Shown: positions 6,341-18,712 of the stretch, piece after piece
Numbering within the stretch: the stretch's first letter is position 1
How the letters are laid out: each line of letters opens with the position of its first letter
From: Promethearchaeota archaeon
GTDB lineage: Archaea > Asgardarchaeota > Lokiarchaeia > Sigyniarchaeales > SOKP01
DNA length: 18,712 nt
Direction of reading: 5' to 3'
NCBI GenBank assembly: GCA_011364975.1
Contig: RDOE01000062.1
Location: forward strand, 1-18,712
The notes under the pieces: generated by a model
The model's input: the letters and a program-made list of their open reading frames with translations, nothing else
Told to the model about the DNA's origin: nothing
Databases searched by the model: none
Program-made: the position numbers and the translations under genes

Positions 6341-6453
6341 TTTTACTATTTCTATTAAAAGATTTTATAAAAAACTCAAATTTTATTCACTTTAAATTTA
6401 AAAAATTCAATTTTATTAGAAAATTTAATTGTTCTTAAAAAAAATTGCTAAAA

Positions 6454-8388
6454 ATGACAAGTAAATTAGAAAATGGTATAAGCAAAACTCAAGCCGTTAT
6501 AAAGAATGAGAATAAAGAACAAGTATGCATAGGACCAGTTAATGATTTAGAACAGTTTGTTAAAACCGATTGGTGGAAGCATATCTTCAATGCATATTAT
6601 TTAAAAACAGATGGTGATGTAGTTGAAGATCAAAAGATTACCGCAACAGAAATAGATTATTTTATTAAACTACTTGATTTAAAGCCGGAGCATAGAATTT
6701 TAGATCTTTGTTGTGGTCAAGGACGTCATACTATCGAATTAGTAAAGAGGGAGTATGGAAAAGTAGAAGGTTTGGATCGTTCAAGATATTTGATACAAAA
6801 AGCAAGATCTAATGCTAAAAAATCCTCATTATATTGCAAATTTAAAGAAGGGGATGCACGAAAATTACCTTACCCTCCTGATCAGTTTGATAATCTTATA
6901 ATATTAGGTAATAGTTTTGGATACTTCGAAACAGTAAATGATGATCTTCGGGTCTTAAAGGAATCATTTCGAGTCTTGAAACCCTGGGGTAAAATTTTGA
7001 TAGATTTATCTGATGGAGAATATTTAAAAAATAATTTTCAACCACGCTCTTGGGAGTGGATAAATAAAGAATATTTTGTTTGTCGTGAGAGATCATTATC
7101 ATTGGATGAACAACGACTTATTTCACGAGAAGTTATCACTCATGTGAATAAAGGAGTTTTAGTGGATCAGTTTTATGCTGAAAGGCTTTATACGAAGGAC
7201 CAGATAATGCAAATTTTAACCAAAGCGGGATTTTCTGATATAATTTTTCATGGCACAATTACACCGGATTCCCAACGTAATCAAGATTTAGGGATGATGG
7301 AACGCAGAATTATTGTTACAGCTTTAGTTAAGAAAGAATGGTCTACACCAAAAATTAAAGCAAAAGCAATAGAGAAGAAAGTAGCAGTAATTTTTGGAGA
7401 TCCTTCTAAGCCAGATCATTTGAAACCAAGTACTATATTCGATGATGATGATTTTTATACTATTGATCAACTAAAGGCTGCTTTAAAAGAAATAGAAGGA
7501 TATAATTTTGTTTATTTCAATAGTCATGATTCTTTAATTCAGGATCTTCAAAAAGCAAAAGCACAATTAGATTATGTTTTAAACCTATGTGATGAGGGAT
7601 ATTATAATAATCCTCGCTATGAACTGCATATTCCAGCTCTTTTAGAAATTCTTAAAATACCCTATACTGGTTCTGGTCCTCAATGTCTTGCTTTTTGTTA
7701 TGATAAATCTTTAGTTCGGGGAATCGCTAAAGAATTGGATGTACCTATTGCCGAAGCAATATACATCAAACCTGGAGAAAAAATAATTGATCTTCCATTA
7801 TACTTTCCTGCAATTGTAAAACCTAATTTCGGGGATTCAAGTTTTGGAATTACCCAGAAAAGTGTAGTAAATAATGGAGAGGAACTATTAAATGCGATTT
7901 CTCAAATACGAGACCAATTTGGTTATGATAAACCAGTGTTAGTAGAACAATTTTTAACGGGAAAAGATTTAACTATTGGAATTATAGGAAATCCGCCAGA
8001 TAATTATATCGTTCTACCTATTATTGAAGAAGATTATTCTGCATTGCCACCAGATCTACCAAAAGTATGTGGTTATGAGGCTAAATGGATGCCCGATTCT
8101 CCGTATTGGAACCTTAAATCCAAACCAGCAGAATTACCCGAAAATGTTGTTCAAACAATTGAAATTTGCTCTTTAAAGTTATTTGAAAGATTGGAATGTA
8201 GAGATTATGTTAGGTTTGATTGGCGATTAGATAATGAAGGGAATCCAAAACTTCTGGAAGTGAATCCTAATCCTGGATGGTGTTGGGATGGTCATTTATC
8301 CAAAATGGCAAAACTAGCCGAAATTGATTATGTTGATATGCTAAGAAACATTTTAAAAGCTGCAGAACTAAGAATTAGCTCAAGGTAA
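6454..8388 (+). CDS. Fusion: class I SAM-dependent methyltransferase + D-Ala-D-Ala-ligase-like ATP-grasp domain
   Basis: N-half: ILDLCCGQGRH (SAM motif I), GLDRS, EGDARKLPY, LGNSFGYF. C-half: IPYTGS, DKS, PAIVKPNFGDSSFGI, VLVEQFLTG, YEAKW, RFDWR, LEVNPNPG. Start at ATG 6454 or TTG 6445. Confidence 0.9.
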   Translation: MTSKLENGISKTQAVIKNENKEQVCIGPVNDLEQFVKTDWWKHIFNAYYLKTDGDVVEDQKITATEIDYFIKLLDLKPEHRILDLCCGQGRHTIELVKREYGKVEGLDRSRYLIQKARSNAKKSSLYCKFKEGDARKLPYPPDQFDNLIILGNSFGYFETVNDDLRVLKESFRVLKPWGKILIDLSDGEYLKNNFQPRSWEWINKEYFVCRERSLSLDEQRLISREVITHVNKGVLVDQFYAERLYTKDQIMQILTKAGFSDIIFHGTITPDSQRNQDLGMMERRIIVTALVKKEWSTPKIKAKAIEKKVAVIFGDPSKPDHLKPSTIFDDDDFYTIDQLKAALKEIEGYNFVYFNSHDSLIQDLQKAKAQLDYVLNLCDEGYYNNPRYELHIPALLEILKIPYTGSGPQCLAFCYDKSLVRGIAKELDVPIAEAIYIKPGEKIIDLPLYFPAIVKPNFGDSSFGITQKSVVNNGEELLNAISQIRDQFGYDKPVLVEQFLTGKDLTIGIIGNPPDNYIVLPIIEEDYSALPPDLPKVCGYEAKWMPDSPYWNLKSKPAELPENVVQTIEICSLKLFERLECRDYVRFDWRLDNEGNPKLLEVNPNPGWCWDGHLSKMAKLAEIDYVDMLRNILKAAELRISSR

Positions 8389-9622: not shown

Positions 9623-10732
9623 TTAATTGAAGTAGCCAAGAATTAGAAATACGAACTCAATAACAAATATAAAGGTTAAGAGTATTTCCATATAAAGCAA
9701 GAATTTTTCATTTAAGTTTGTTTGAGCAACGTTATAAATATCTCCAATGGTATCTATTCTATGCCGTATGCTTCCGCTCCATTCTTTTAATTGAAATAAT
9801 TCAGCTAATTGAGTATATAATTGAGCTAAATAAAAGTCACCAAATAATTTTGATACATTTTCAACGCTTTCTAATAGATATGATAAATCATATTTTAATC
9901 GAAGTAAATTTCCAACTCGTTTACTTAACCTTCGCCAAAGTGTACCACTCATATAATAAATCTTGGAAATATCCGATTCAGCTAAAGAGAGTCTTCTTTC
10001 TAATAATTTATCTAAAATTCTTAATTCCAATAATTGATAGTTAGCGATTTCAATAACAGTTAAAATATCATTATAATCTTCAGTCGGATCGATAATTAAA
10101 CCACGATCAAAATCAAAGATAATATAATCATTCTGTAAATAAGAGAAACTGTTTTCTAAAGTTCGTTCAATTTGATATTGATTTAAGTTCAGTTCTGGAT
10201 CTTCTCCCATTAATAAATTTGCTATAAATATTTTATTTTCGTTGATAAAGGATTTAGGGTTTTCAAAAGTGTCTGTAAGACAATACATTGTGTATTTTTC
10301 AGTATCAGTTATTCCGAAATTATAACCAACTTCATCAATACAATCTCTTATTTGATTAAAAATTTTTGTCTCGTGAGATTTTAGGAATTGATTTATATTA
10401 TATTCTATATTTTCAACATAAAACTTAATTTTTCTAATTTCATAGAGTTCATTTAATTGAATATCTGCAAATTTAAGATGGGCTGTTAATGAAATAACTC
10501 CATCTTCATAAATTTTTACTTGTAATTTGACCTCGTTAATATATTGAGATGTAGTAGTAATCCTTTGTATAATTTCTAATCTTATAGGCTCAGGAAAATC
10601 GACGTATTTCGGAGTATCCCTTTTTTTAATGATTACTTTATACTGAATCCCATGTATTATGTCTACTGCTTTCTTTAGATCTATTTTCCTACCAACATCC
10701 GTTAGACGGATTAAAATTACTTCGCCTTTCAA
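9623..10732 (-). CDS. Conserved hypothetical protein, RMD1/DUF155-like, with a C-terminal TM helix
   Basis: QLLELRILDKLL...VENVSKLFGDFYLAQLY...FQLKEW...YMEILLTFIFVIEF resembles the RMD1/Sif2 helical bundle plus terminal TM. Family call is from memory of the pattern. Confidence 0.6.
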   Translation of the reverse strand: MKGEVILIRLTDVGRKIDLKKAVDIIHGIQYKVIIKKRDTPKYVDFPEPIRLEIIQRITTTSQYINEVKLQVKIYEDGVISLTAHLKFADIQLNELYEIRKIKFYVENIEYNINQFLKSHETKIFNQIRDCIDEVGYNFGITDTEKYTMYCLTDTFENPKSFINENKIFIANLLMGEDPELNLNQYQIERTLENSFSYLQNDYIIFDFDRGLIIDPTEDYNDILTVIEIANYQLLELRILDKLLERRLSLAESDISKIYYMSGTLWRRLSKRVGNLLRLKYDLSYLLESVENVSKLFGDFYLAQLYTQLAELFQLKEWSGSIRHRIDTIGDIYNVAQTNLNEKFLLYMEILLTFIFVIEFVFLILGYFN

Positions 10733-12184: not shown

Positions 12185-12330
12185 AATTTATTTTGGGAAA
12201 AAATTAATCACCTATAATCTTCATTTTAATAACCATATCCCATTATTGATAATCTTTATAATGTACGTCAATTAAATAACATAAAAGGAATGATTATTTT
12301 AAAATAAGGAAAGAAATGTGATTAGAAACA

Positions 12331-13923
12331 TTGAATGATGACAAAATTGTAATTAAAAATTTATCAAATGTAATTGGAAAGGATTTTAGTGAAGTGAGTG
12401 TAATAAGAGATACCTACGTTGGCTTCTCATATAAGCAAGAGCAAGAAAATATCACTGAACTTAGTTTAGATTTATCAAAACTTGAAATAGGTGAGAAAGC
12501 TCTAGCTTTGACTGGTGAAATAATTCAGAAACTAGAACACCTTAAAACACTTTATATTAAGTTTTTAAAAGGAGAGAGTATTCCAAATTGGTTATTTCAA
12601 CTTACTAAATTAGAAAGTCTAAGTTTGCGTCAAAATAACTTAAATTCAATCCCTGAGGGAATAAAGAATTTCACATTGCTTAAATCACTGAACTTAGCAT
12701 CGAATGATATAACCGTTTTACCAAAATGGATTTTGGAATTGAGTGATTTGAAAGATCTAAACCTGGAACACAATGATAATCTTGAGTGGAATCAAAAAAA
12801 TCTTGAAATTTTGGAAATATTAAAAGAAAGAGGTGTTAAAATTATAGCAACAAGATTATTTAACTTCCAGCTTAAATATAACCTTCCAAAAGATAAAATT
12901 GAAATAATAAGAGAACTTGAAAGGGAGAACATAGAAAAAGAAAAAATGAAGCAATATGTAAATCCCATTAATATGAAAATTGAGGATGGGAAAATAATTG
13001 AATGGAGAATGTTTGAATATTCATTTAAAGCCTTGCCTGAAAACTTCGGAATCTTTAACGAGCTAAAATCCTTAACTATAACACACACACCTCTCGAAAT
13101 GTTACCAGAGTCTTTTGGTAAACTTACAAGTCTCGAATTTCTCGATTTATCTTCTAATTCCCTTAATAAGTTACCAGACTCATTTAGAAATTTAAAATCA
13201 ATTTCAACCTTAAATTTAAGCAACAACCTCTTTAATGAGATTCCCACGCAATTATGGAGTTTTACCTTATTAACTCATTTAAATCTAAGTAATAATCCAT
13301 TAGGTGATGAAGAAAAATCTATTATTCAAAAAGCTCCCGATTCCATTAGAGAATATTTAAGAAAGAAAGCAACTATAAAAATTTTTATTTCTCATGCAGT
13401 TATAGATTTTGAAAAATATCAAATTGGAAAACTTGTAGAATATCTAAAGAATCAAAAAGAGATTTCTGAAGTATTTTTCTGTGAAGAGGATTTAACTGGA
13501 AATATCGATCAATGGATGCTAGATACAGTTCAGAAATCCCAATTGATATTATTTGTTGCTACAAAGAAATCCCTATATGATTCTGTTGATTGTCGAAATG
13601 AATTACAGCTTGCCGATAAATTTTCAATCCCCATTATTCCTCTGAAAGGTGATGATGTTGACTGGAATGAATTAGCAGAACTAAAATTGTCGAGGGAATT
13701 AGGAATTGAGTTTGAAAGAAATAATTTTGAGTCTTTCTACGCTGATCTATACAAATATATCTATAATTTTAAACGCGAAATTGACCTTATGTCAAAAAAA
13801 AGTCGTCAACAGGGAATTACCAACATATATGAAAGATTTAGGTTGATATTTAATGAAAATATTGAACAATTAAAACGTAGAATTGATCAATTAGAACAAA
13901 GAATAAAAAACTTGGAGAATTAA
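12331..13923 (+). CDS. Soluble LRR-LRR-TIR protein with a C-terminal coiled coil
   Basis: LxxLxLxxNxLxxLP repeats at aa ~65-150 and ~220-324. TIR domain from aa 349 (KIFISH...SQLILFVATKKSLYDSVDCRNEL...IPIIPL). Heptad tail IEQLKRRIDQLEQRIKNLEN. No TM segment or signal peptide seen. Confidence 0.88.
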   Translation: MNDDKIVIKNLSNVIGKDFSEVSVIRDTYVGFSYKQEQENITELSLDLSKLEIGEKALALTGEIIQKLEHLKTLYIKFLKGESIPNWLFQLTKLESLSLRQNNLNSIPEGIKNFTLLKSLNLASNDITVLPKWILELSDLKDLNLEHNDNLEWNQKNLEILEILKERGVKIIATRLFNFQLKYNLPKDKIEIIRELERENIEKEKMKQYVNPINMKIEDGKIIEWRMFEYSFKALPENFGIFNELKSLTITHTPLEMLPESFGKLTSLEFLDLSSNSLNKLPDSFRNLKSISTLNLSNNLFNEIPTQLWSFTLLTHLNLSNNPLGDEEKSIIQKAPDSIREYLRKKATIKIFISHAVIDFEKYQIGKLVEYLKNQKEISEVFFCEEDLTGNIDQWMLDTVQKSQLILFVATKKSLYDSVDCRNELQLADKFSIPIIPLKGDDVDWNELAELKLSRELGIEFERNNFESFYADLYKYIYNFKREIDLMSKKSRQQGITNIYERFRLIFNENIEQLKRRIDQLEQRIKNLEN

Positions 13924-17996: not shown

Positions 17997-18712
17997 ATGG
18001 AGTTTAAAGCTTTAAATGTCAGTTATAGTTCACTGAAAAACGCTATTAATATTAAATTTTTTTCTATTATTACGATTTTACTGAATACTTTTTGTGTAAT
18101 ATTTGGTGTATTATACATAACTTTTTCAGTCTACATTTTGGCATGGGATATATTTGGAATAATACTTCCAATTACACTTTTTGAAAATTTATTTCTTATC
18201 TATTTAAGTTCAAGTCAAGTCGAAAAATCCACTAAAAATGGGCATCGTATATATCATTTTTGCGTGATATTTCTTATTTATATTATGATATCATTTTTTG
18301 GCATAATGGGAGGAAATTTACTCTTATCAGCAATCATCGTGAATAATGGATTTATTATCATATTTAGTTATTTCCTAATCTATTTTTTCTATTTTAGTTT
18401 GCTAATTTTAAGTATAATTCTCGCAATATATGATTTAAGATACTTTAATAATAAACGAATACAACCTATAACACAAAAGCAACTTAACTCAGTCTTTATA
18501 CAAAAGAAATCCATAAACCAGTTGTTAAAGAAACCTTTAAACATTATTTCTACGATTATCTTCATGTTAAGTGCGTTATTTGCCATAGTAATTGTTTTTG
18601 GTTCTTTTGAAATTATTACGACTTTCATCGCGATAATTGCGTCTCAATTTGGGATCTTTTTTTCATTGATTTTCTTAGCGAATTTGATCTTAAAATTAAA
18701 CTTAAAAAGGCA
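17997..18712 (+). CDS. Multi-pass membrane protein of unknown function, N-terminal part (runs off the right edge)
   Basis: ATG 17997 opens a stop-free frame to the edge (238 codons): MEFKALNVSYSSLKNAINIKFFSIITILLNTFCVIFGVLYITFSVYILAWDIFGIIL..., with about six hydrophobic segments. Confidence 0.8.
   Translation, partial: MEFKALNVSYSSLKNAINIKFFSIITILLNTFCVIFGVLYITFSVYILAWDIFGIILPITLFENLFLIYLSSSQVEKSTKNGHRIYHFCVIFLIYIMISFFGIMGGNLLLSAIIVNNGFIIIFSYFLIYFFYFSLLILSIILAIYDLRYFNNKRIQPITQKQLNSVFIQKKSINQLLKKPLNIISTIIFMLSALFAIVIVFGSFEIITTFIAIIASQFGIFFSLIFLANLILKLNLKR

Follow-up and report, generated by a model that had tools for sequence, protein, structure and literature searches.

An LRR-TIR-helix protein family of Lokiarchaeia with an invariant catalytic-type glutamate: a predicted single-chain TIR sensor-effector

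A protein in which LRRs are fused directly to a TIR domain and a C-terminal helix is encoded by the genome of an Asgard archaeon. It is the product of a 530-aa gene at 12331..13923 (+) of the window, i.e., the whole stretch of DNA analysed here, which is an entire 18.7-kb contig of an archaeal genome of 3.74 Mb (99% complete, 6% contamination). Its family combines this architecture with a TIR fold, an invariant Glu (E424), a gradient of conservation along the chain, and a patchy, class-restricted and sometimes tandem distribution. The protein is predicted to be a TIR NADase of the kind known from SARM1 and SPARTA, autoinhibited until a ligand triggers it, a cytoplasmic sensor and effector in a single chain; by our analysis this reading has about an even chance of being correct. 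TIR domains are common to bacterial, plant, and animal immunity, where, in well-studied systems, the link to the sensor is made by a STAND NTPase (plants, Avs), by a membrane span (TLRs), or through a separate effector gene (Thoeris). The Asgard protein displays a simpler wiring, and its family is missing from the PADLOC catalogue and, supplementary tables aside, from surveys of Asgard defence systems. Should both the NADase activity and its trigger be demonstrated, the family would offer a minimal, tractable model of how repeat sensors gate TIR enzymes and a first entry point for functional work on TIR signalling among archaeal relatives of eukaryotes.

The ORF is uninterrupted over 530 codons, from a TTG start to the stop codon at 13921-13923. 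It is preceded by an in-frame TGA (12319-12321), and the TTG at 12331, the earliest possible start, aligned with the initiator Met in 31 out of 31 orthologues (alignment A1). Pfam searches revealed four LRR families (best 6.9e-19) and TIR_2 (PF13676) at aa 351-462. The TIR_2 score of 29.6 bits is a marginal pass of the cut-off of 28, and this domain does not appear among the TIR_2 matches of the source genome at the genome-wide E ≤ 0.001. The other matches at E ≤ 1 turned out to be weaker ones to LRR families and one to HSBP1, which covers the final 19 residues of the C-terminal helix and is insignificant (E 0.078); NB-ARC, P-loop NTPase, Roc, COR, and APAZ were absent at the same threshold. 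None of the PADLOC family models matches the protein. In the Protein Atlas it falls into generic TIR_2 clusters only, at 0.87-0.89, under the 0.9 level. Models of Xanthomonas Xop LRR effectors (NCBIfam) matched the LRR part alone with 84 bits against cut-offs of 450-600, which was not taken as membership. An AlphaFold2 model based on 32 orthologues has a pLDDT of 83 for the whole protein and above 90 for the LRR part, where a helical linker divides the repeats into two blocks of four. No TM-like segment was detected, and the protein is soluble since no 19-residue window exceeds a hydropathy of 0.72. Thus the original prediction of a soluble LRR-TIR-helix layout free of TM, NB-ARC, and ROC-COR domains is confirmed by Pfam, the AlphaFold2 model, and the hydropathy profile.

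Conservation, expressed as the mean pairwise identity of 32 orthologues, changes along the chain, all parts of which are given here on the + strand. The N-terminal cap (aa 1-70, 12331..12540), modelled as a helix, a beta-hairpin, and a helix, varies among orthologues, and together with the four repeats of LRR block A (aa 71-154, 12541..12792) it shows an identity of 37%. The lowest value, 34%, belongs to the helical linker with its second beta-hairpin (aa 155-230, 12793..13020). Identity is 59% in LRR block B (aa 231-325, 13021..13305), the last three of its four repeats being best kept, 69% in the LRR C-terminal cap (aa 326-347, ...EEKSIIQKAPDSIREYLRKK, 13306..13371), and 78% in the TIR domain (aa 348-465, 13372..13725). 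The post-TIR region (aa 466-530, 13726..13920) consists of two helices and has 71% identity at aa 466-507 and 47% in the heptad tail. The helix of aa 466-486 packs in the model as the final TIR helix, and that of aa 489-529 carries a conserved G..(I/V)YERFRL motif and the I/L heptad tail. The x positions on the concave face of repeats A1-A4 and B1 show as many as 13 residue types, and their majority frequency is 0.33-0.39, as compared to 0.53-0.93 for the LRR scaffold positions; repeats B2-B4 are more uniform (0.57-0.62). LRR block A is a candidate ligand-binding surface because its concave-face positions are so variable. A variant with 97% identity has 16 differences, 8 of them in aa 1-154 and one in the TIR. 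The alignments suggest strong purifying selection on the TIR beside a variable LRR face, a pattern expected of a fixed output module that carries a changeable surface for recognition.

Profile alignments assign the cap to the SHOC2/LRRD1 type (LRRD1 9ijj, 9fqr). The cap motif had earlier been read as pointing to a Roco origin, that is, descent from an LRR-Roc-COR-TIR protein by loss of Roc-COR. Such a descent could explain why the top Foldseek match of the full model is an LRR-Roc-COR fragment of Chlorobium tepidum Roco (4.5e-13, with SHOC2 close behind at 1.9e-10) and why one family member (P0120) is named 'small GTP-binding protein' by its source. The latter protein, however, has LRR and TIR families alone on record, and LRRD1 and SHOC2 are at least equally good matches for both the cap motif and the repeats, the cap aligning residue for residue. 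The best solved LRR profile matches are LRRD1, SHOC2, and Leptospira LRR proteins, and no Roco chain is among the best 60 listed in the profile search of solved structures. Roc or COR was found in 0 of 23 relatives (18 wider relatives and five giant TIR proteins), and the four closest LRR paralogues in the source genome are LRR-only. Since such a cap motif is a general feature of SHOC2/LRRD1-type LRRs, the Roco origin is unsupported and seems highly improbable. The protein has in common with Roco, SHOC2, and LRRD1 the LRR class and the C-terminal cap, a likeness limited to the LRR part; it differs from them in the lack of Roc-COR or a death domain and in the arrangement of the LRRs as two blocks of four.

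The TIR-helix part (the C-terminal 201 residues) was also modelled alone with an alignment that included 27 additional distant relatives, yielding a pLDDT of 89.8 and a pTM of 0.81. The domain is flavodoxin-like, with five parallel beta-strands alternating with helices as in solved TIRs. In a Foldseek search of this model the SARM1 TIR came first (1e-4, TM 0.67-0.70 on target), followed by SPARTA, MAL, plant TIRs, DNPH1, and AbTir. The doubt whether aa 349-480 form a TIR fold at all is thereby answered in favour of the TIR. Sequence searches of solved structures with the TIR-helix, as a single sequence or as a 16-sequence profile, returned no TIR chains; their sole match, the mitochondrial CDP-DAG synthase Tam41 (6ig2, E 0.005-0.008, 72 aa), was taken as a chance match. 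With a profile that retained the LRR columns, the same kind of search was dominated by LRR proteins. A two-copy complex prediction for the TIR-helix (alignment A3) scored 0.02, a value which counts neither for nor against self-association.

E424, encoded by the GAA codon at 13600..13602 (+), lies in the motif S418-V-D-C421-R-N-E424-L, in the helix following strand C, where enzymatic TIRs have their conserved Glu. It is invariant in 32 of 32 orthologues and in all 43 sequences of a larger set that includes paralogues of 31-49% identity, in which L372, C421, and W445 are the only other invariant residues. It is also invariant (10/10) in an alignment with a short TIR protein and a WD40-TIR protein from the same genome and five membrane-receptor TIRs. 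According to HMMER, the segment SKSVKLE of the short TIR aligns with SKWCLME of the flax L6 TIR. Because the short TIR thus aligns both ways, E424 can be equated with the Glu of the short TIR and with that of L6, and the earlier placement of E424 in a catalytic-type position is borne out. In structural alignments, E424 falls within 2-5 residues of RUN1 E100 and SARM1 E642 (both residues taken from the titles of the structure entries), as judged by simple offsets. Four residues before the Glu, an invariant Asp (D420, 32 orthologues) occupies the place of the Trp in the L6 motif, so that the protein departs from enzymatic TIRs at this point. The Trp is known at the same position of SARM1, AbTir, and plant TIRs. 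The presence of D420 instead could mean that NAD+ binding is altered or abolished.

The substitution would also suit a TIR that serves as a non-catalytic scaffold or adaptor for TIR-TIR assembly with the WD40-TIR, short TIR, and membrane TIR receptors of the cell, similar to animal TLR-adaptor signalling, the Glu being structural. As stated in a passage of PMC7075850, this Glu occurs in more than 70% of all TIRs, non-enzymatic ones included, and need not follow activity. A fixed protein partner would be in keeping with how strongly the TIR surface is conserved (78%), and potential partners are at hand: the source genome has two further TIR proteins of a related subtype (29-30% identity), and this subtype has matches in 68 of 135 genomes of the host family, up to 11 per genome. 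On the other hand, the nearest structural matches are catalytic TIRs, and no partner gene is linked. Close orthologues of the short TIR (65-70% identity) occur in six genomes, of which only one (G264) also contains a close LRR-TIR orthologue, and at least six LRR-TIR genomes (G244, G245, G255, G267, G270, G271) have no short-TIR match at E ≤ 1e-15. The short TIR as an adaptor partner of LRR-TIR was ruled out by this lack of co-occurrence, and a scaffold role in general appears unlikely.

If the protein is a TIR NADase, its operation may be pictured as follows. The variable N-terminal LRR block would bind a putative ligand, e.g., a stress signal or a protein of viral or other non-self origin. 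In the resting state, the conserved C-proximal LRRs and the cap would keep the TIR inactive, a putative autoinhibition. The C-terminal amphipathic helix would join two or more chains, so that binding of the ligand could lead to TIR-TIR packing and to the formation of composite active sites, in which E424 would then cleave NAD(P)+. The output of this putative NADase chemistry would be NAD+ depletion, i.e., dormancy or death of the infected cell, and/or a signal derived from ADP-ribose. No effector gene is linked, which speaks for NAD+ depletion, or for a diffusible product with its reader elsewhere; the putative role would be in defence. SARM1 provides a working analogy for the combination of a repeat sensor, an oligomerisation domain, and a TIR, and SPARTA for a TIR that oligomerisation switches on and that depletes NAD(P)+.

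The family was found in a single Asgard class, the Lokiarchaeia, and its occurrence there is patchy. A word-indexed search returned 751 proteins at E ≤ 0.001. The best 120 of these are mostly 526-564 aa long with a full-length identity of 41-97%, and include longer forms (585-739 aa) and shorter partial records. Among the distant representatives of the search, lengths of 452 and 1432 aa recur in frames of genomes of the class. Their archaeal source names are Promethearchaeota, Lokiarchaeota, one Odin label, and one Hermod label; the non-archaeal names among the same 120 are generic (LRR protein, hypothetical protein, 'internalin A') and there are two marine-sediment metagenome records. A scan of one genome per species gave 36 loci with archaeal-type labels except for one (L009), labelled 'Nanopelagicaceae bacterium'. 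The gene order at L009 (NifU, MBL-fold protein, MobA-like protein, cysteine desulfurase, LRR-TIR, flavoprotein, PAC2) is that of the window. Since Promethearchaeota records have this order as well, the bacterial label probably stems from a mistake in binning or labelling. Among 400 genomes of the phylum, scored for up to eight first-look candidates each and many of them incomplete, 67 have TIR-helix matches at E ≤ 1e-20. The matches fall in 57 of 134 genomes of the host's own family, in 1 of 1 and 6 of 14 genomes of two other families of the order, and in 2 of 3 of one further family of the class; none of the 247 genomes in the remaining 29 families of the phylum has a match at this threshold. 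The scores are bimodal: 38 matches in 33 other genomes have 61-79% identity over almost all 201 residues, and below the gap lie paralogues of up to 52%. Up to seven matches occur in some genomes and tandem pairs are found (L023, L024, and several other contigs), whereas the source genome has a single copy. Within the host genus, close orthologues are present in 10 of 41 other genomes, and at least eight congeneric genomes of 91-100% completeness are devoid of any match. No relatives were detected on plasmids or phages by tblastn or on viral contigs by a pattern scan. Sixteen proteins of 101-322 aa, sought as stand-alone TIRs, are mostly partial records or lie on very short contigs, and were read as fragments of the LRR-TIR family. 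Many paralogue matches had stops inside; in the one case examined (L049), the pseudogene reading was rejected, as the alignment merely overruns the stop of a shorter WD40-TIR gene.

These data bear on the question of whether the protein works in defence or in ordinary signalling. In the latter case it would be a regulated enzyme whose SHOC2/LRRD1-type LRRs bind a host small GTPase and whose TIR cleaves NAD+ or another nucleotide or nucleoside. The source genome contains 71 matches to the Roc small-GTPase family (61 above the cut-off), mainly in frames of 170-220 aa, consistent with the big small-GTPase complement known for Asgard archaea, and the class of the LRRs would suit such a ligand. The gene, however, is missing from most genomes of the genus and the family, including those that are 98-100% complete, which would be unexpected for a core signalling component. 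Besides, tandem duplication and the variability of the LRR face are in line with ligands that change, and no GTPase gene is linked. An ordinary signalling role therefore seems quite unlikely, even a little more so than that of a scaffold.

The neighbourhood of the gene is of the housekeeping kind. On its 5' side, a CitMHS-type transporter gene lies on the same strand at a distance of 146 bp, and on its 3' side there is a convergent class-V aminotransferase/cysteine desulfurase; NifU, a proteasome-activating AAA ATPase, PAC2, and a flavoprotein are further away. The GC content of the gene, 28-29%, is no different from that of its flanks. Immediately 5' of the AAA ATPase gene, the window has a 647-aa ORF (6445-8388, +) with an N-terminal SAM-methyltransferase and a C-terminal D-Ala-D-Ala ligase-type ATP-grasp domain. 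Two other ORFs, 9623-10732 (-, 369 aa) and 17997-18710 (+, 238 aa, open-ended), match no Pfam family at E ≤ 0.001. A search of sequencing runs for signs of expression listed 20 DNA data sets from seven studies and none of RNA.

The order cysteine desulfurase, LRR-TIR, flavoprotein, PAC2 is restricted to the five closest loci (67-70% identity), one of which (L011) lacks PAC2. Fourteen other loci have a block of their own, with acyl-CoA synthetase and GNAT upstream of LRR-TIR. Downstream of it comes a convergent gene for an N6 methyltransferase of 691 aa that has a specificity domain, followed by genes for enoyl-CoA hydratases, Alba, and CODH/ACS subunits. This methyltransferase (L019:9664-11736, -, and its counterparts in the 14 loci) is an N6-adenine methyltransferase fused to a Type I specificity-like domain, and no restriction subunit is found among its immediate neighbours. 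It is the sole credible defence-type match of PADLOC in the 130 genes flanking 37 loci. The other matches are an IscS-type desulfurase, scored as DndA/SspA and located near NifU, and a few weak ones (ATPase, subtilase, mad2), and the rest of the flanking genes are housekeeping. The earlier statement that no Thoeris-type effector lies nearby proved right in a wider frame: ThsA, SIR2, Macro, and SLOG are absent from the window and from the 130 flanking genes, and no APAZ or Argonaute was seen in the scanned neighbours of the LRR-TIR loci. Nor do the 37 loci show a conserved partner gene or a defence island. The two stable neighbourhoods, the flank-like GC content, and the absence of plasmid, phage, and viral relatives are more in keeping with a gene that has long been inherited vertically, with losses, than with a mobile defence island.

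The protein should be compared with the known TIR systems. SPARTA and the short-pAgo systems combine TIR-APAZ with an Argonaute; LRR-TIR has neither, and its sensor, an LRR region, is joined to the N-terminal side of the TIR. In SARM1 the TIR is preceded by ARM repeats and SAM, in contrast to the LRRs before and the single helix after it here, and the detectable sequence relation to SARM1 is confined to the TIR. In plant TIR-NLRs and TIR-only proteins (RUN1, RPV1, L6, RPP1), the TNL order is TIR-NB-ARC-LRR; here it is reversed to LRR-TIR with no NB-ARC, and the Trp of the plant motif (L6) is replaced by Asp. More generally, NLR/STAND receptors (TNL, Avs, bNACHT) possess a central NTPase, which neither LRR-TIR nor its 18 wider relatives contain. 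With Thoeris ThsB the protein shares the prokaryotic type of TIR and the Glu, and ThsB-type Atlas clusters reach 0.87-0.89, a lead only; it has no PADLOC match to ThsB and no ThsA-type neighbour. Toll-like receptors have a signal peptide, extracellular LRRs, and a TM segment, whereas LRR-TIR lacks a signal peptide and TM and its LRRs are of the intracellular SHOC2 type. Its BB-loop region, read by eye as CEEDLxGNID, differs from the Box-2 RDxxPG loop of TLRs (Box 2 as given in a passage of PMC7075850). The label 'TLR/NLR-like' in the original prediction is hence apt for the layout and fails for the TM segment, signal peptide, NB-ARC, and Box-2 loop. Direct ancestry of TLRs or TNLs is unsupported, since the family was found in one class only and its TIR has its nearest counterparts among those of prokaryotes. 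Prokaryotic fusions of TIR to repeat domains are generally known. In one part of PMC7075850, prokaryotic TIR groups are described as mixing architectures. The Asgard LRR-TIR family appeared to be undescribed in the full-text literature searched and is not mentioned in PMC11249213, PMC11291487, 10.1101/2024.10.26.620412, PMC7075850, or PMC8195603, in each case supplementary tables aside, which might list a member.

The LRR-TIR protein may belong to a wider TIR repertoire. The related TIR subtype terminates many proteins of 300-3600 aa in the host family (the same 68 of 135 genomes), and the 18 wider relatives of LRR-TIR add WD40, TPR, or extra LRRs or repeat the LRR-TIR unit. Our tentative suggestion, which we regard as possible rather than probable, is that LRR-TIR constitutes one arm of a lineage-specific, STAND-free TIR receptor network that arose independently, with soluble and membrane sensors and one NAD+-based output. 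LRR, WD40, and TPR proteins would serve as the soluble sensors, and type-I receptors as the membrane sensors, each of the latter composed of a signal or anchor, a huge beta-helix or solute-binding ectodomain, one TM segment, and a cytoplasmic TIR. A NUDIX protein, found within at least two TIR gene arrays, might act as a signal degrader. If this suggestion is true, an innate-immune-like or cell-surface sensing network with Toll-like topology would exist in archaeal relatives of eukaryotes.

Several TIR proteins of this kind deserve mention. In the source genome itself, a 1192-aa WD40-repeat protein with a C-terminal TIR is encoded on contig G000:C123 (L006:1044-4622), and the 234-aa short TIR protein, whose C-terminal TIR is 29% identical to that of LRR-TIR, on G000:C184 (L007:2864-3568, -). 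Five giant proteins of 1689-3619 aa occur in the same archaeal family (L051:474-5540; L052:227-6787, -; L053:338-6955; L054:275-11131, -; L055:533-6232). Each of them has an N-terminal hydrophobic segment, NosD/beta-helix repeats, a single TM helix located 130-220 residues ahead of the point where the ectodomain region ends, and, at the C-terminus, a TIR_2 with the equivalent of E424; SBP_bac_5 domains are also present in two of the five. Their membrane topology is Toll-like, although the ectodomain is non-LRR. In G264, a TIR array (C114, L049:3100-16417) encodes a 4TM-TIR protein of 548 aa, a WD40-TIR protein of 547 aa, a signal-LVIVD-TM-TIR protein of 1067 aa, a NUDIX-domain protein of 576 aa on the opposite strand, and then a WD40-TIR protein of 1221 aa. 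A second congener (G260:C4, L050) has ORF sizes in the same order as this array, the Pfam scan having been made on the G264 array only.
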